This document shows, piece by piece, positions 3,666 through 31,950 of a stretch of 56,196 nt of DNA. Source of the DNA: Anaerolineae bacterium (GTDB taxonomy: Bacteria > Chloroflexota > Anaerolineae > JAKLPW01); the NCBI GenBank assembly GCA_022013675.1, contig JAKLPW010000276.1, forward strand, positions 1 to 56,196, in the 5' to 3' direction. The translations under genes were made by a program, and so were the position numbers. Within the stretch, counting starts at the first letter, position 1. Each line of letters begins with the position of its first letter. The notes under the pieces are model-generated. The model saw nothing but the letters and a program-made list of their open reading frames with translations. It did no database searches and was not told the origin of the DNA.

Positions 3666-4511
3666 CTACGATCGGCGTACGAGTCCTTGAGCCATACGAT
3701 TCTCTGCCTGGGTGCGAGTGGGGATACTGGACAGGCCGCGGGCCTCCACGCTATACGACGCGACGGCGTTGGCGAAGCGAGCTGCTGCGTAGGGATCGCT
3801 GCCCTCTGATAGTGCAATGAGATAGGCCGAGGCAAAAACATCACCCGCGCCGGTCGGGTCCGTTTCCTCTGCGTAATAGGCTGGCAGACGACGAACGCCT
3901 TGCGGGGCGTAGACCACGGCTCCACGCCAGCCATCCGTCACCACTGCTAGTTTGGCCATCTCCAAGTAACTCTGCAGAAGAGATAGGTCACCACCTACGT
4001 CCTCTTCGCTGAGGATCAGGACATCGGCACGAGCCAGGATGTGGGGGGCACTGGTCCAGACTGTGTGTCTTACCCGACCGGAAGCATCCCAACTGCGCAT
4101 CCATCCCTGAGGCGTGACGCCTATCAGTGCCTGAGGGAAGAGGTCTACCAGATTCTCTCCTACCTCCATAGCTATTGGCCCTAGGTGAACCAATGGTGCA
4201 CTGTACCACTTCTCTGGTACATGCTCAGGTCTCAACGGAGGGGCCACGGATTGGATATATTGTTCTCGTGTTCCATTGGTGTATATATTCTCAAAGGTCG
4301 TCGTATCTTCTGCTGGCCAACATATTAGCTCGATGCCATCGAACACGGATCCCATCTCCATATCCTCTGCCACGCTGGTAATGACGCCGACGCGCAGTCC
4401 CAGGTTTCGCGCCGTTAACGCAGCATAGGTCACAGTTCCGCCCGGTATTATGGTGCCATCATGCTGTATGTCTCGGGTTATATGGCCGATCACGATGTAG
4501 TCAGGCAGCAT
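3666..4511 (-). CDS. PfkB/ribokinase-family carbohydrate kinase
   Basis: N-terminal PGGTVTYAA and the anion-hole motif DPTGAGDVF. ATG at 4511 has GGAG upstream (alternative start 4538). Confidence 0.88.
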   Translation of the reverse strand: MLPDYIVIGHITRDIQHDGTIIPGGTVTYAALTARNLGLRVGVITSVAEDMEMGSVFDGIELICWPAEDTTTFENIYTNGTREQYIQSVAPPLRPEHVPEKWYSAPLVHLGPIAMEVGENLVDLFPQALIGVTPQGWMRSWDASGRVRHTVWTSAPHILARADVLILSEEDVGGDLSLLQSYLEMAKLAVVTDGWRGAVVYAPQGVRRLPAYYAEETDPTGAGDVFASAYLIALSEGSDPYAAARFANAVASYSVEARGLSSIPTRTQAENRMAQGLVRRS

Positions 4512-4618
4512 AGGCGTTGCTCTCCGTGTTCTTTCCATTGCCGGCTAGGATGATTGTGATGTGAGATCTCGTAACTTTCCGCACTAGCTACTTGCTTTGC
4601 AGCGCAGAGACCAGCGCG

Positions 4619-4710
4619 ATTATACCCTTCCTGTGTGGATTGGTCAAGCTCGTGGTTACCCTTAACATCCTTATGTCCCAGTTGACGCGAGTTGCTGTTC
4701 GGGTTATGAT
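4619..4710. promoter_or_regulatory. Divergent sigma70-type promoters (pfkB / amidase)
   Basis: Minus strand TTGACC-N17-TATAAT (4647-4619); plus strand TTGACG-N17-TATGAT (4682-4710). Confidence 0.65.
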
Positions 4711-4739
4711 ACAAATGATTACGAAGAAGAAGAGGCTAT

Positions 4740-25952: not shown

Positions 25953-26996
25953 CTACTGAGATCCTTTCATTCGAGGATCGAGGGCGTCTCGCAGTCCGTC
26001 GCCTAGGAAATTGAAGGCGAACATGGTAAGTGCCAGAGCAATGGCTGGGAAGAGCACCAGATGTGGGTAAGATCGCATGGCTCTCGACCCATCTGAAATC
26101 ATAGCGCCCCAACTAGGGGTTGGCGGGTCTACTCCTAGACCTATGAAGCTCAGGAAAACCTCAGTCGTGATGTATCCTGGGATATACAGCGTGACTGTCA
26201 CAATCAGAGGGCCAAGAATGTTGGGAAGTATGTGGCGCGTGATTACGCGCATGTCTCGGGCTCCGATCATGTGCGAGGCCTCGACGAACTCTTTTTCTTT
26301 AAGGGAGAGTATTTGTCCTCTGGTGAGGCGTGCTATCCCCATCCATGCAGTGATTCCGATGCCCATGAAAATGAAAAGCATGCCGCCCCCTTCCAAGCCC
26401 AGTAGACCGTCCACGAAGTGGTTTACCTGGTTGAAGGTGTAGGCAACCGAGCCTGGCTGCTGCGCACTGCCGAAGCTGCTCTTGAAGAAGGCCATGAGCA
26501 GGATGATGAGCAGCATCGTTGGAAAAGCATACATGATGTCGACGATGCGCATCATGGTATTATCTACCTTGCCTCCATAGTAACCGGAGATAGACCCATA
26601 GATCAGGCCGATAAACAGCGCTGTTAAGGCGCCAACGAACCCTACAGGCAATGAGACTCGTGCCCCGTAGACGATGCGGCTAAACAGGTCCCTACCCAGG
26701 AAATCGGCTCCCAGGAGGAACTTGTTTGAAATGGTGGCGTAGGCCTCGACGTTTCCAGGCAGGAGAGGCGCTAGCCAAGTTGGGATTGTGTAGTTCTCGA
26801 CGGAGTCGCCTTCAGCGTAGTGCATGGGAGTGATCTGAGGGGCAAATACCGCTGCCAATATGAGCACGATGATGATAACGCCACCCATAATGGCGGCCTT
26901 GTTTTTTATCAAGCGGCGCCAGGCGTCCAGCCAGAGGTTCGCTACTCGTTGTTCTCTCTGTAGCATACGCGCCTGAGCACGTTCTTGTATTGTCAT
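25953..26996 (-). CDS. oppC: Oligopeptide ABC transporter permease OppC
   Basis: N-terminal WRRLIKNKAA, LGAD.LGRDLFSR, EAA loop EFVEASHMIGA, PTPSWG and GDGLRDALDPR. Confidence 0.93.
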   Translation of the reverse strand: MTIQERAQARMLQREQRVANLWLDAWRRLIKNKAAIMGGVIIIVLILAAVFAPQITPMHYAEGDSVENYTIPTWLAPLLPGNVEAYATISNKFLLGADFLGRDLFSRIVYGARVSLPVGFVGALTALFIGLIYGSISGYYGGKVDNTMMRIVDIMYAFPTMLLIILLMAFFKSSFGSAQQPGSVAYTFNQVNHFVDGLLGLEGGGMLFIFMGIGITAWMGIARLTRGQILSLKEKEFVEASHMIGARDMRVITRHILPNILGPLIVTVTLYIPGYITTEVFLSFIGLGVDPPTPSWGAMISDGSRAMRSYPHLVLFPAIALALTMFAFNFLGDGLRDALDPRMKGSQ

Positions 26997-27040
26997 TTCA
27001 ATCCTCCTTCAATCGGTGATAGACCGCTGAGGTTGGTATT

Positions 27041-27988
27041 CTACGTGTACCGGATCCTGGGATCCAGGAAAGCATAAGTGATGTCCACTAGCAAGTTGGC
27101 TGCGACGAGGAAGACGGCATAGAGCAGGATGGCACCCATGACCACGGGATAGTCACGGTTCCCTATGCTGACGATGAAATATTTTCCTAGTCCTGGGATT
27201 GCAAAAATCTGTTCCACCACAAATGATCCCGTGGTAACGGCAGCGAATAGGGGCCCCAGAACGGTGGCTACGGGAATGAAGGCATTCTTCATGGCATGTT
27301 TGACCATGACAGCTCGTTCCGAGAGACCTTTGGCGCGCGCGGTGCGGATGTAGTCTTCGCGGATGACCTGCAACATTGAGGCGCGGGTCAGGCGAGCAAT
27401 AATGGCTGACGATGGGAGCCCTAATGCGATGGCGGGCATGATCACTTGGGAAGGCTTGCCCCAGCCTGCAACGGGAACCCATTGGAGAATCAATGCGAAT
27501 ATCCAGATCAGTAGGGGGCCCAGAACGATATTGGGTACGGATACCCCAAAGATGGCTAACCCCATTCCCAGGTAGTCATAGACGGTGTTTTGCTTGAGGG
27601 CGGCCAGTACTCCCAAAGGTACGCCTAGACCCACGGAGATAAGCAGTGCCCAAACCCCCAGATTTAAGGAAACTGGCAGGTGAGATGCGATGATGTCATT
27701 CACGGTTCGGCTGCGAGACGTGAACGAAGGGCCGAGCTGCCCTTGGAAGAGGCCACCGTACTCGCCGTTAGGTTTCCTGGTGACGCCTAGGTAGTCTGTA
27801 AACTGCTTCCAGAGGGGCTGATCGAGGCCGTAGTGCTTCTCCAGGTTGGCGATGATCTCGGCGGGAAGGGCCTTCTCTCGATCGAAGGGGCCACCCGGAA
27901 GAGCGTGTGCTAACGAGAAGGTCACCACAGCGATGAAGAAAAGTACCGGAATTGTCCAGAACAACCGTCTTGCGATGTAGCGTCCCAT
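27041..27988 (-). CDS. oppB: Oligopeptide ABC transporter permease OppB
   Basis: Motifs PGGPFD, LGPSF, EAA loop DYIRTARAKGL, VVEQIFAIPGLG, RDYPVV and LDPRI. ATG follows GGAGG. Confidence 0.94.
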   Translation of the reverse strand: MGRYIARRLFWTIPVLFFIAVVTFSLAHALPGGPFDREKALPAEIIANLEKHYGLDQPLWKQFTDYLGVTRKPNGEYGGLFQGQLGPSFTSRSRTVNDIIASHLPVSLNLGVWALLISVGLGVPLGVLAALKQNTVYDYLGMGLAIFGVSVPNIVLGPLLIWIFALILQWVPVAGWGKPSQVIMPAIALGLPSSAIIARLTRASMLQVIREDYIRTARAKGLSERAVMVKHAMKNAFIPVATVLGPLFAAVTTGSFVVEQIFAIPGLGKYFIVSIGNRDYPVVMGAILLYAVFLVAANLLVDITYAFLDPRIRYT

Positions 27989-28025
27989 GTCTTGCACCTC
28001 CTGACAGGCTATTGAATACGCTTGA

Positions 28026-28057
28026 ATTATAGCACTGACCTATCAACCGACTATCAA
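28026..28057 (-). promoter_or_regulatory. oppB promoter with tandem heptamer repeats (SARP-type operator geometry)
   Basis: Minus strand reads TTGATAG-TCGG-TTGATAG-GTCAGTGC-TATAAT. Confidence 0.6.
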
Positions 28058-30975
28058 TGCGCTTGTGTTTTGGGCGCGGCCCGTGATATCCCTGGCTTCA
28101 GCAGGGCGAGAACGATCTCTGCCAGCAGGTCAACGGTTGCCAGGAGGATGGCGTAGAACAAGAGCGTATTGACGAGCACGGGGTAATCCTTGGCCTGGAT
28201 GGTGCTGACGAGATACTGACCCATGCCAGGGATGTCGAAGAGCTGCTCGACGACGAGAGAACTTGCCATCATGGCGGAGGACATGGAGCGTGCAAGGGGC
28301 AACAGAGAGAGCAGGGACATGCGAAGCGTCCGCCAGAGCAGGAGCCTGTGGGCGTGCTGCCGCTGGGGCATTGCCATGTCCGTGAAGAGCCTGCATTGCA
28401 GCTTCACCATGCTATCGCGCACCGACTGAGCGATCAAAGCGGCAAACCCCAGGCCCAGGGCAGCGCTCGGCAGTATCAGGTGACGCAGCTCTCCCCATCC
28501 AGTGGGGGGTAGCCAGGCAGTAGTGAAGGAGAGAGACCATAGTAACAGTGGCCCCAAGACAATGACAGGGATGGCGAGACCGAACGTTGCCATTCCTGTG
28601 AACAAATAGTCCCAGAAGCTGTCGGTCTTGTGTGCTGCAAGCGCGCCGCAAGAGACCCCCAATCCAATAGCGAATAGAGTGGCTGCTAGACCAAGCCCTA
28701 GAGATGCGGGGAGGTGCTGGCATAGGATGTCGTTGACGGTGCGTTCTGGGGGTATGTATGAGGGGCCAAGATCAAAGTGAAAGACGACGTTGCGCAAGTA
28801 GACCAAATATTGTTCCGCTGGTGAACTGCCTACTCTATAGTACTTCTCGATGGCCCCGATCGTGACCGACGACAGGTGCTTTAGGGAATCGAAGGGGCCA
28901 CCGGGGATGATACGTAGTGTGAAGAAAGCTACAAGAGAAAGAAAAATGATGGAGGCGGTCAGTCGTAGAATTCCTCGAACCCCTCTAGCTACCAGTTCAC
29001 GTTGTCGCTGGTAGCGTCGAAATTGCGTTCTCAGGTGGAAACTCGCTCGTTTCAGGCGCTCTCGATAATTGGCCGGTTGCACTTTGGCTACTCGAAGACG
29101 TAACTGTTCTTCGTGGGTGACACTGATCTCTTCCATGGCCACTTGACGAACTTCCTTGTGTGCGAAGCGAAACTTGCCGGCCATCGTTTCTTGTAGGAAT
29201 CTCAACCGAAGCAGTGCGTCGAGTGCACGAAGGGCTTCAGTCTGGTCGAGTCCGCTAGCACGCTGCACAGTCACGAAGTCGCATCGTTCTCCGGCAACAG
29301 CGGCTGTTAGCAGGAACTCCCGAGTGAAGGGATCAAGTCGTCTCAAGCGTGTCTGGAATAGCTCTCGTATGCTGTTGGGGATTCGCTTTTCGGTGGGTGC
29401 AGTGGATGGGCGGAGAAAGAGCGAACGGGTCAATTCGATGGTGAAGAGAGGATTACCTTCGCTTCTTCTGTGAATGCGTCTTTCCAGAACGTGTCCGCCG
29501 ATACCTTTGGTGATGTGTCGGACAAGCTGACCTGTTTGATCGGCATTCAGACGAGAGAGGGTCAAGTGCTTGGCTTGGCTCTTCACTTCCAGGTTGTGCA
29601 GCACGGCTTCCGCAGGAGGAGACAGTTCCTCGGCACGATAGGCCACTATGAAAAGAATGCGCTCGTCTCTGAGTGAGTGGACCAGGTATGCTAGCAGATC
29701 GCTGCTAGCCGCATCTGACCACTGACAGTCGTCCAGAAACAGAGTCGCCGGCCTTCGTTGAGTGATTTCTCTCAAGATAGCAGTCAGAAGCGGCGCTAGC
29801 TGCCGCAGTCTGTTTTCGGATCCCTCTGTCATCCGAGCAACAGATTTGCCCCAGCCTGATAGGTATTTCCGTAGATCCATCCAGCGATAACCACTGTCAG
29901 ACGGCGAGATGCTTTCCCACAAGGACAGAACTGCACGCAGAATAGGGATGAATGCCTGGTAGGGCAGGGGAGACTCCATGGGATAGCAGTGGCCAGCAAG
30001 AACAGCAATGCGTCTTGTAGTCTGGCGGGCCAGGAATTCCTCAATCAGACGTGTCTTGCCGATGCCTGCTTCCCCTTCCACCAGCAGTACTCTGGCCTGA
30101 CCTCTAATAACAGCGTCCAGGGAGTTGTTCAGGAGATTCAACTCTAGATCTCGATCAACCAGGGGTAGACGTTCCTCGCCGAGGAGAAAGGAAGTCTTCC
30201 ACTCGGGCAACTGCTCCTGTTTCAGGATACTCTCGCCCATCAAAAGAGCGTGGATCTCCTGTGTTTCGTCGCTAGGAGCGGTGCCAAGCTCAAGTTCCAA
30301 TACCTCACGGCACTTCTCGTAGGTACGGAGGGCGGCAGCGCGATTGCCTTCACGGTGATACAGGCGCATTAATGTGCAGTATGCACTTTCCTGAAGAGGA
30401 TCGGCTCGCAGAGCATCAAGGGAGTACTTGATGGCTTGCCCATAGTTGTGACGCTGTTGATGGTAGTATGCCAGTTGCTCCAAGAGCGAGATGTAGGCAA
30501 GATGCAAGGCTTCGCGTCTGAATCGGGTCCATACTGAGAAAGCCTCGTTCTCCTTGAGAATGAAGCCATCCAAAAAGCCTTCTCGGTATAGTTCAATGAC
30601 CCGTACCGCTCTGTTGATGGAGAGAGCGTCGGGGGCGGTGGATATCCCTTCCAGAGCATGCTCGAACTCCTCAACGTCTACCCAATAGTCGCTGCTATCG
30701 CTGAGCTGAACCCATTCCCATGTAGCGATGATATGATTGCTACCGGGTAGTGCTTGACGGAGTTTGTAGAGTGCATCGTTAAGGCTGCGGCGAGCGTGGC
30801 GTTCGTCACTATCTTCCCAGAACATGGTGGCTAGTTTCCCGCGAGATATGGGAGCCTGAGCTTCCAATGCCACGTAGAAGAGTAGCGCCATGGCTTTCTG
30901 GGACGTCAGCGCGATAGGCTGGCCGGCGTACTCGATTCGTGGAGATCCTAGGAGATAGAGCTTCAGGGTTGGCAT
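28054..30975 (-). CDS. Fusion protein: SARP-type winged HTH + BTAD + STAND ATPase + OppB-like ABC permease domain
   Basis: HTH/BTAD: LYLLGSP, LL.YVAL, SRGKLA..FW, DVEEF, LY..GFL, DPLQESAY..LMRLY, ELGTAPS. NTPase: GEAGIGKT, LFLDDCQWSD, SEGNPLF. C-terminal ~310 aa: PGGPFD, LGPSY, VVEQLFDIPGMG, KDYPVL. ATG at 30975 has an RBS-like GAGGAAAG. Confidence 0.88.
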   Translation of the reverse strand: MPTLKLYLLGSPRIEYAGQPIALTSQKAMALLFYVALEAQAPISRGKLATMFWEDSDERHARRSLNDALYKLRQALPGSNHIIATWEWVQLSDSSDYWVDVEEFEHALEGISTAPDALSINRAVRVIELYREGFLDGFILKENEAFSVWTRFRREALHLAYISLLEQLAYYHQQRHNYGQAIKYSLDALRADPLQESAYCTLMRLYHREGNRAAALRTYEKCREVLELELGTAPSDETQEIHALLMGESILKQEQLPEWKTSFLLGEERLPLVDRDLELNLLNNSLDAVIRGQARVLLVEGEAGIGKTRLIEEFLARQTTRRIAVLAGHCYPMESPLPYQAFIPILRAVLSLWESISPSDSGYRWMDLRKYLSGWGKSVARMTEGSENRLRQLAPLLTAILREITQRRPATLFLDDCQWSDAASSDLLAYLVHSLRDERILFIVAYRAEELSPPAEAVLHNLEVKSQAKHLTLSRLNADQTGQLVRHITKGIGGHVLERRIHRRSEGNPLFTIELTRSLFLRPSTAPTEKRIPNSIRELFQTRLRRLDPFTREFLLTAAVAGERCDFVTVQRASGLDQTEALRALDALLRLRFLQETMAGKFRFAHKEVRQVAMEEISVTHEEQLRLRVAKVQPANYRERLKRASFHLRTQFRRYQRQRELVARGVRGILRLTASIIFLSLVAFFTLRIIPGGPFDSLKHLSSVTIGAIEKYYRVGSSPAEQYLVYLRNVVFHFDLGPSYIPPERTVNDILCQHLPASLGLGLAATLFAIGLGVSCGALAAHKTDSFWDYLFTGMATFGLAIPVIVLGPLLLWSLSFTTAWLPPTGWGELRHLILPSAALGLGFAALIAQSVRDSMVKLQCRLFTDMAMPQRQHAHRLLLWRTLRMSLLSLLPLARSMSSAMMASSLVVEQLFDIPGMGQYLVSTIQAKDYPVLVNTLLFYAILLATVDLLAEIVLALLKPGISRAAPKTQAH

Positions 30976-31144
30976 TTCTTTCCTCTCCGATCTTACCGAG
31001 AGATCAATGATCATGCGTATTATACCACAAATGAGCAGATGATCGAGGCGAGCGTCGGGAGGTAGCAATTTGGTGTCTGAGAGAGTGGAAGAGGAGCGCG
31101 AGGGTTCTACTGCGGGGTGATGGACTTTGTGGAGATAAGTCATG

Positions 31145-31528: not shown

Positions 31529-31621
31529 CGACAGGGTCAGGGGTTGGCACTAGCTTCGTTGACTTGGTGTCTGCGAATTTCTTGCTAACAATAAGCTGAG
31601 TTAGCTAGTCGATGAGCTTGT

Positions 31622-31855
31622 TCAGTGGTTAGCTATTAGTGCTTCGATGGCAAGGACGTCGATTGCGCGGAAGTCCTCTATCCATAGATTAGCATCCGGC
31701 AGCTCTGCCGGCATATAGCCGGTGGTGACGGCAACACAACTCATGTTTGCGGCGACAGCAGCACTCACTCCGCTAGGGCTGTCTTCAAAGACCACGCACC
31801 GACCTGGACGGACACCCAGCTTCTTCGCGGCCAGGAGAAATATCTCCGGATGTTT
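31622..31855 (-). pseudogene. 5'-truncated HAD-superfamily phosphatase (beta-PGM/CbbY-like) fragment
   Basis: Hand translation gives KHPEIFLLAAKKLGVRPGRCVVFEDSPSGVSAAVAANMSCVAV...*. An in-frame TAA lies at 31871-31873 and there is no DxD motif I. Confidence 0.8.
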
Positions 31856-31950
31856 GTGAACCTGTTGCCTTTACTGTTACAATCGCGTAGGTGGTTAGTA
31901 ATGCTAATGCTCCCCGCCTCTGCAATTGTGGAGCACCCACGAGGAAATGA

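Follow-up and report, generated by a model that had tools for sequence, protein, structure and literature searches.

A candidate SARP-type operator between a SARP-NOD-permease fusion gene and oppBC in an uncultured Anaerolineae bacterium

We analysed the promoter of an oppB-like gene in a 56,196-nucleotide stretch of DNA (hereafter the window, i.e. the whole stretch at its full length) from an uncultured Anaerolineae bacterium. On balance, and with moderate confidence, sequence comparisons lead us to favour the reading that the adjacent SARP-NOD-permease fusion uses two TTGATAG repeats in this promoter as its operator, and that the promoter, of the extended -10 form, would drive oppBC from a start near position 28019. 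The first-pass annotation of the window had proposed that the neighbouring BTAD fusion acts on oppBC through a SARP-type operator, and comparative evidence supports this core reading for a candidate site; binding, activation, the transcription start and the nature of the signal are what we infer.

The repeats and the promoter of oppB

All the features described here lie on the minus strand. From 28057 to 28026, the letters read TTGATAG tcgg TTGATAG gtcagtgc TATAAT, which bears out the arrangement first annotated (TTGATAG-N4-TTGATAG-N8-TATAAT). The upstream (28051..28057) and downstream (28040..28046) heptamers follow each other with a period of 11 bp in a 22-bp box, and 8 nt (gtcagtgc) separate the downstream one from the -10 hexamer (28026..28031). 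The start of transcription was predicted at 28019, i.e. 7 nt after the -10 as inferred from the usual distance between this element and +1, and the repeats would then occupy approximately -38 to -32 and -27 to -21. Annotated earlier as overlapping the repeat, the stop codon of the fusion gene (TGA, 28056-28054) does lie inside the upstream heptamer. On the other side, a Shine-Dalgarno sequence (GGAGG, 27997..28001) stands 8 nt before the ATG (27988-27986) of the oppB-like permease gene (27041..27988), whose product begins with MGRYI and matches the Pfam families BPD_transp_1 (E 6.8e-40) and BPD_transp_1_N. The oppC-like permease gene (25953..26996) encodes BPD_transp_1 (E 5.3e-35) and OppC_N.

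The promoter had been described as having no good -35, and this description held: a sigma-70 scan with spacers of 16-18 nt returned no minus-strand promoter in 27800-28300, so that a canonical -35 was rejected. The distances from the two TTGATA hexamers to TATAAT are 20 and 9 nt (counted by hand). A further element, absent from the first-pass annotation, is TGn directly upstream of the hexamer (TGc, 28032..28034, with TG at 28034-28033), which makes the -10 a perfect extended -10 of the sigma-70 type, TGcTATAAT. This element alone accounts for the missing -35.

We compared this promoter with SARP targets as they are described in the accessible parts of two papers. The SARP rule given there has direct repeats with a period of 11 bp (or 22 bp) and the 3' repeat 8 bp from the -10 (PMC10936776); for AfsR, 8 bp separate the downstream DNA-binding domain from the -10 that follows it, and the original afsS spacer measures 20 bp (PMC11301090). 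The SARP geometry claimed for the oppB promoter agrees with this rule (11 bp, 8 nt and 20 nt here), the upstream TTGATA being 20 nt from TATAAT in the manner of the over-long afsS spacer. The locus additionally lacks a canonical -35 and contains a gene of the SARP family. The -10 departs from the described targets: these have a poor -10 and a poor -35, the afsS -10 being CACTGT (PMC10936776, in its accessible part), as expected of weak, activator-dependent promoters, whereas TGcTATAAT is perfect. With such an element, transcription may not require an activator, and the role of the repeats might be to modulate it or even to repress it.

Recurrence of the box in the genome and in the class

Within the window, the 18-nt pattern with at most two mismatches had a single match for 0.20 expected, and 19 of 100 shuffles contained at least one; by itself, this window-level count is not decisive. 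The search was also carried out on the whole genome, a 3.94-Mb MAG of 526 contigs. Among its 646 TATAAT sites (both strands), only this one carries an exact 7-mer repeat of period 11 at N8, exact repeats at the other distances from 0 to 25 amounting to 0-3 each, partly within one long array. The motif TTGAYA-N5-TTGAYA occurs four times in 3.94 Mb. When followed by N9-TAnnnT, it has two matches genome-wide, each just 3' of one of the two BTAD genes and on the same strand, and the other distances to TAnnnT between 0 and 20 yielded one match, at 11. This relaxed pattern was composed after both genome sites had been seen, and its exact count is therefore post hoc, unlike the fact that the two matches fall just 3' of the two BTAD genes and on their strand. 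A loose scan for TTGATAG pairs (at most two mismatches) returned 135 matches, with a zero-mismatch pair at the oppB box only. As for further regulon sites, none of the other matches showed the SARP geometry before a gene, and the single pair with one mismatch (contig C163, position 16521) was rejected, having no -10 behind it.

The genome contains only two BTAD genes, the fusion and a gene on contig C79 (8033-11605) encoding BTAD, AAA_16 and TPR (TPR_12) domains. The sequence TTGACAC tttt TTGATAC ctctgTGc TATACT is found 93 nt after the stop codon of the latter, and shares with the oppB box the core, the period, the 8-nt distance and TGn. A hairpin and a T-rich stretch, terminator-like by eye, lie between this stop codon and the box.

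In 400 other Anaerolineae genomes, the relaxed pattern was found at 28 sites distributed over 24 genomes, for two with a reversed control. Positions left free by the pattern were also shared: the TG of an extended -10 is present at 19 of the 28 sites, and the spacer between the repeats is T-rich at 20 of them, unlike the TCGG of the oppB box. Gene content was surveyed around 27 of these sites over up to 6 kb on each side, several stretches being shortened by contig ends. With loci of +/-1.5 kb, a SARP domain had been seen in a single case out of 30; this span was too narrow for a domain encoded more than 3 kb before the end of its gene, hence the use of +/-6 kb. A SARP-domain gene was present in the fetched stretch at 13 of the 27 loci, and absent from it, several stretches being cut by contig ends, at the other 14. 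The chance of finding a BTAD gene within 6 kb is approximately 1-4 %, as derived from 4-27 BTAD matches per genome of 4.8-7.3 Mb (five genomes checked).

At 10 of the 13 loci, the SARP gene lies upstream of the box on the same strand. The distance from stop codon to box is 10, 19, 30, 53 and 191 nt at five of them, 629 and 671 nt at two and 1113 and 2045 nt at two more, and the reading frame of the regulator is broken at the tenth. One of these ten loci has a second SARP gene 2.5 kb downstream. At the other three, the SARP gene is divergent in two cases, and in one it is found on the downstream side of the box only, at 2.5 kb. The succession of regulator and box is thus also seen at C79 and at 5-7 loci of other genomes, and a short gap between the two is not unusual (10-53 nt in other genomes). 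The closest homologue of the regulator part of the fusion (G020, 38 % identity) is followed by four TTGACG-type units with a period of 11, the last of them 8 nt from TATACT.

The gene behind the box is, at no fewer than six loci (C79, L192, L206, L211, L212 and L221), a conserved ORF of 66-78 aa that matches no Pfam family. At these six loci, proteins with signal peptides come after this ORF.

The fusion regulator and its locus

The ORF of the fusion extends from 28054 to 31143 on the minus strand (1029 codons), and a start at MPTLKLY, supported by database entry P0004 and by homologues, gives a gene at 28054..30975 and a protein of 973 aa. Pfam assigned to it BTAD (E 2.8e-18), AAA_16 (E 3.5e-24, residues 328-499 of P0001) and BPD_transp_1 (E 5.6e-16, residues 829-1020), together with a weak Trans_reg_C match (E 3.7e-4; 20.9 bits, under the cut-off of 26.2). 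The AAA_16/NOD module contains a Walker A motif, GEAGIGKT. Two hallmarks of large SARPs are therefore found, i.e. an N-terminal winged helix with BTA and a NOD / P-loop ATPase module. There is no Pfam match for a C-terminal TPR sensor, and BPD_transp_1 stands in its place.

An AlphaFold model of the first 260 aa, built with an alignment of 18 sequences, reached a pLDDT of 90.5. Its best Foldseek matches were AfsR in transcription initiation complexes (8k60, 8hvr; E 6.6e-12 to 5.1e-11, TM 0.71-0.78, 248 columns), and EmbR was found as well (2ff4, 2fez), the two together spanning E 6.6e-12 to 2.5e-9. A PDB search by sequence only (phmmer) was dominated by TPR design proteins, AfsR and EmbR appearing only at E ~2e-3 (8hvr_I: E 2e-3 over residues 4-244). 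The N-terminus is thus predicted to fold as an SARP domain of the AfsR/EmbR type, and this fold, combined with the Pfam architecture, leads us to describe the protein as a 'large SARP' in which an OppB-like membrane domain replaces the TPR domain. According to the accessible part of PMC10936776, removal of the TPR domain leaves AfsR able to bind and to activate in vitro, so that its loss need not abolish function.

The permease domain of the fusion aligns with OppB from end to end, its EAA coupling loop being replaced. This loop reads EDYIRTARAKGLSER in six OppB sequences, whereas all four fusions carry CRLFTDMAMPQRQHAH and variants of it, conserved among themselves. The C-terminal domain consequently departs from a canonical ABC permease, in which the EAA loop contacts the ATPase. 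In a modelled complex, this domain and OppC reached an ipSAE of 0.75, as compared with 0.00 for the best of three controls; the mark applied is reached by 58 of 80 solved complexes and by 2 of 110 mismatched pairs, agreement between runs being at least 97 % and the pLDDT of the partners at least 76. This result may only mirror likeness, since OppBC-type complexes have already been solved.

When the permease part was used as query against 5.8 billion proteins, with lengths limited to 565-1801 aa, the architecture BTAD + AAA + BPD_transp_1 was retrieved in four protein clusters, the window's own and three from JGI metagenomes (83, 82 and 70 % identity over the query region; 83, 83 and 75 % over the whole protein). 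No fused form was seen among 40 relatives, all belonging only to the same class, nor was any found in a scan of genome contigs. Among 42 loci from a metagenome scan, one close fusion locus was present (L026), a contig of 5066 bp with 91 % amino acid identity that carries the fusion gene and the start of oppB. Its promoter (4707-4738) reads TTGATAA tcgg TTGATAG atcagtgt TATAAT, then the same Shine-Dalgarno sequence and ATG; the repeats, the 8-nt distance, TGn (as TGt) and the -10 are kept, with one change in the upstream repeat (TTGATAA). The comparison of boxes between fusion lineages covers this one other lineage, the three more distant ones (P0005 to P0007) having been compared as proteins only. 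The dN/dS ratio between the window and L026 is 0.35 overall (SARP 0.32, NOD 0.26, permease 0.51) for a dS of 0.125. With so low a dS and flanks approximately 89 % identical to the window (counted by hand), conservation of the box in L026 is uninformative.

The fusion ORF of L026 stops at 4269, i.e. 437 nt before the box, and the codons immediately past it spell ...TYASSCGT*, the same tail with which P0005 ends. This match makes it probable that the 437-nt spacer is ancestral and was lost in the lineage of the window, and the overlap of stop codon and heptamer is probably a derived accident of a lineage-specific deletion. No terminator was found in the spacer of L026. The operator had been presented as independent support for a functional fusion; in that role it adds little, and conservation in four protein clusters is the better argument.

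OppB orthologues with 72-78 % identity and the same start methionine occur in other families of the class. The repeat, predicted to be confined to genomes with the fusion, was found in L026 and in none of 11 orthologous oppB promoters (72-77 % identity) of relatives in which no fused form was seen, so that the prediction held as far as these loci extend. Four of the orthologues (L071, L073, L074 and L076) have TGcTATAAT, as at L071 and L073, or TGcTATACT, and no repeats; the extended -10 is accordingly a common promoter form here, which can occur without repeats nearby. Two relatives have the operon order oppA-oppB-oppC-X-oppD, and contig C138 of the window genome carries oppA-X-oppD-oppF without oppBC. 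Judging from these gene orders, the oppBC pair has become detached from the remainder of the opp operon and now stands behind the fusion.

The stretch is present in runs of 13 studies, i.e. groundwater, marine and estuary metagenomes. An assembly artefact was ruled out by a 25.9-kb contig from another study, which spans 27400-28506 with three differences, none of them in 28026-28057. Two more runs have short contigs over the box, which differ only at 28005, 28021 and 28111. The box is unchanged in contigs of runs X2, X7 and X16, near-identical strains that are too close to the window for this identity to show selection. In the metatranscriptome run X20, two short contigs lie inside oppB (27511-27752 and 27804-27878) and leave the promoter and the 3' end of the fusion uncovered; assembled RNA contigs cannot reveal a start, and DNA carry-over is possible.

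Proposed mechanism, alternatives and known systems

In the mechanism that we propose, two SARP domains (winged helix + BTA) of the adjacent, membrane-tethered regulator would bind next to each other on the same face of the DNA. The upstream protomer would occupy the place of the -35, 20 bp from the -10, and the downstream one would sit 8 bp from it. The protomers would replace the contact of sigma region 4 with a -35, which is the role demonstrated for AfsR at afsS, and sigma region 2/3 would hold the extended -10. Transcription from near 28019 would then yield a 31-nt leader containing the GGAGG ribosome-binding site. The fusion has kept its SARP and NOD (AAA_16) parts, an OppB-like membrane domain of six helices replacing the TPR sensor, and because of this replacement the input signal is probably read at the membrane, possibly via pairing with OppC.

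Three other explanations were weighed against this operator reading. According to one of them, the box is a genuine operator of the SARP type whose main, or additional, ligand is the BTAD-AAA-TPR regulator of C79, the fusion being a bystander or a competitor. The half-sites are indeed nearly identical (TTGATAG versus TTGACAC/TTGATAC), and the regulators beside the class-wide sites share 46-74 % identity with the SARP domain of C79 and only 30-37 % with that of the fusion. Furthermore, the recognition helix reads ARRSLNDALYKLRQALP in the fusion and ARRSLSTALWHIRRCLP in the clade beside TTGAYA sites (about 6 of 17 positions differ, counted by hand); with helices this different and a half-site almost the same, the other BTAD regulator may be the binder. 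The 14 of 27 sites without a SARP gene in the stretch also make it seem that such regulators have distant targets. We nevertheless consider this explanation unlikely: in this genome the two regulators and the two sites adjoin one-to-one, the site of L026 remains beside the fusion gene, and the G020 homologue is itself directly followed by an array of 11-bp repeats that ends 8 nt from a -10.

It is less likely still that oppBC has an activator-independent extended -10 promoter, in which the repeats are an inert leftover of a -35-like duplication or are without effect today. The perfection of TGcTATAAT, the four oppB orthologues that use this element or TGcTATACT without repeats, and the weak window statistics (matches with at most two mismatches in 19 of 100 shuffles) speak for it, but the exact geometry is unique in the genome, the design recurs at the only other BTAD gene, and the class-wide enrichment (28 versus 2 for the reversed control) is accompanied by conservation at unconstrained positions. 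The third explanation, a box for a response regulator of the OmpR/PhoB type or for another winged-helix protein encoded elsewhere, seems to us the most improbable. Proteins of this type also bind direct repeats of 10-11 bp over the -35 region, and AfsR and PhoP bind overlapping sequences (PMC10936776, accessible part); against it, Pfam detected no receiver-domain family in the 13 neighbouring ORFs scanned, the motif lies beside BTAD genes at 13 of 27 loci as compared with the 1-4 % expected, and the 8 nt to the -10 are the SARP value.

Beyond the operator reading, we put forward, tentatively and as a possibility rather doubtful at present, that the fusion is a transcription factor embedded in a transporter: its domain without EAA loop would take the place of OppB beside OppC and signal via NOD to the SARP domain, which would activate oppBC. 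Beside OppC, the domain might respond to substrate, to the docking of the binding protein or to how much OppB is supplied, and the signal, passing through the NOD ATPase, would switch on the oppBC promoter 3' of the regulator's own gene. The fusion would then represent a derived branch of a previously undescribed class-wide system of regulator, box and target in Anaerolineae, whose usual output would be the conserved protein of ~70 aa and secreted proteins.

If true, a single polypeptide would connect an ABC importer with RNA polymerase, and the fusion is a specific candidate for one protein in which the control of transcription is coupled to a transporter. Nearly all work on SARP activators has dealt with them as antibiotic switches in actinomycetes. 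In the full-text literature covered, outside which most subscription journals fall, no report was found of SARP/BTAD regulators in Chloroflexota or of a BTAD-permease fusion. Our results suggest that the SARP rule (11 bp apart, 8 bp from the -10) extends to uncultured Chloroflexota, with a box made of TTGAYA repeats and an extended -10, and that SARPs can be wired anew, here with a degenerate ABC-permease domain instead of the TPR sensor and with the matching permease genes as the putative target. As the box is recognisable, the regulons of the many BTAD-NOD-TPR proteins of the class should be predictable from sequence.

Among known systems, AfsR/afsS of Streptomyces coelicolor, as described in the accessible literature, offers a close set of likenesses, i.e. 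a large SARP (SARP + NOD), two 11-bp repeats, the downstream one 8 bp from the -10, and an upstream repeat that overlaps a -35-like hexamer with a 20-bp spacer, to which the modelled fold of the N-terminal 250 aa can be added (TM 0.71-0.78). The afsS gene lies directly 3' of afsR, an order of regulator gene, box and target that would be mirrored here. The fusion differs from AfsR in sequence (19-21 % identity) and in having an OppB-like membrane domain instead of a TPR sensor, and the promoter differs from that of afsS by its perfect extended -10 in place of the weak CACTGT and by its half-site, TTGATAG. The host is an uncultured Anaerolineae rather than an actinomycete, and the two genes of the putative target encode transporter permeases.

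ToxR and CadC also hold a winged-helix DNA-binding domain, of the OmpR type, at the membrane, and the activity of CadC is set by the transporter LysP. Each contains one transmembrane helix and a periplasmic sensor, BTA and NOD modules being absent, and the transporter is a separate protein. As compared with ToxR/CadC-LysP, a whole ABC-permease-like domain is here fused in cis. The pho boxes of PhoB and PhoP lie ~10 nt from the -10, versus 8 nt for SARP boxes. In these boxes, too, 11-bp direct repeats replace the -35 and are bound by tandem winged-helix domains (PMC11301090, accessible part), but the proteins that bind them are receiver-domain response regulators, none of which is encoded in the 13 nearby ORFs scanned. 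Finally, ActII-ORF4, DnrI and PimR (SARP-LAL) share with the present system heptameric repeats one helical turn apart, located beside their own clusters (PMC5930380 and PMC3367932, in their accessible parts); they are soluble and control antibiotic biosynthesis genes in actinomycetes, whereas the fusion is predicted to be embedded in the membrane and its putative target is oppBC.

Permease domain of the fusion and the split opp operon

The permease domain of the fusion protein (minus strand, window 28057-29046) carries, in place of the EAA coupling loop of ABC permeases, another stretch that is conserved in all four fusion proteins. The predicted complex of this domain with OppC was scored at an ipSAE of 0.75, versus 0.00 for the best of three controls, with a run agreement of at least 97 % and a partner pLDDT of at least 76. 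Structure prediction thereby suggests that the domain pairs with OppC despite its replaced loop; the score passes a mark that 58 of 80 solved complexes attained, as did 2 of 110 mismatched pairs, and this may reflect mere likeness to solved complexes.

The sole close oppBC copy in the genome (G000) is the pair behind the fusion gene. The opp operon is split between two places, window 25953-27988 and contig C138:1-4844. The latter carries oppA, a 567-aa-type gene, oppD and oppF, with oppBC absent from it, unlike the opp loci of two relatives (L080 and L081), where oppA-oppB-oppC-X-oppD are contiguous. The minus-strand sequence at window 31620-31870, upstream of the fusion gene, resembles by eye a HAD-type hydrolase that has kept its C-terminal part but not its N-terminus, and may be a gene fragment.

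Repeat boxes and the stop-to-box spacer

In the metagenome contig L026, a second fusion locus, about 437 nt (4270-4706) separate the fusion's stop from the repeat box; this spacer is missing at window 28054-28060. Since its 5' start codes for the C-terminal tail found in the more distant fusion protein P0005, sequence comparison indicates that the spacer was probably deleted in the lineage of the window.

Adjoining the closest non-fused homologue of the fusion's regulator part, at L218 (G020:C3), the box occurs in four-repeat form. The array lies about 300 nt past the stop of the regulator gene and consists of four 11-bp units in succession (TTGACGttccc, TTGACGctccc, CTGACActtcc and TTGACGcctgt), the last being 8 nt from TATACT. 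Additionally, a loose motif scan retrieved the heptamer CTGATAG in tandem arrays on other contigs of G000 (C366:14131-14200, C162:2906, C351:1749 and C513:2311).

A recurring regulator-promoter-small ORF module

Among Anaerolineae, a recurring module was observed in which a BTAD-AAA_16-TPR regulator gene is followed by a TTGAYA-repeat/extended -10 promoter, a 66-78-aa ORF and a large signal-peptide protein. It was found at C79:7939-5265 of G000 (locus L217), where the final protein is a 779-aa beta-helix protein, and at loci L192, L206, L211, L212 and L221 of other Anaerolineae. The small ORF is conserved (...PLNTFIVRFW...HVQSGE...) and had no Pfam family. The layout of this module is reminiscent of afsR-afsS.
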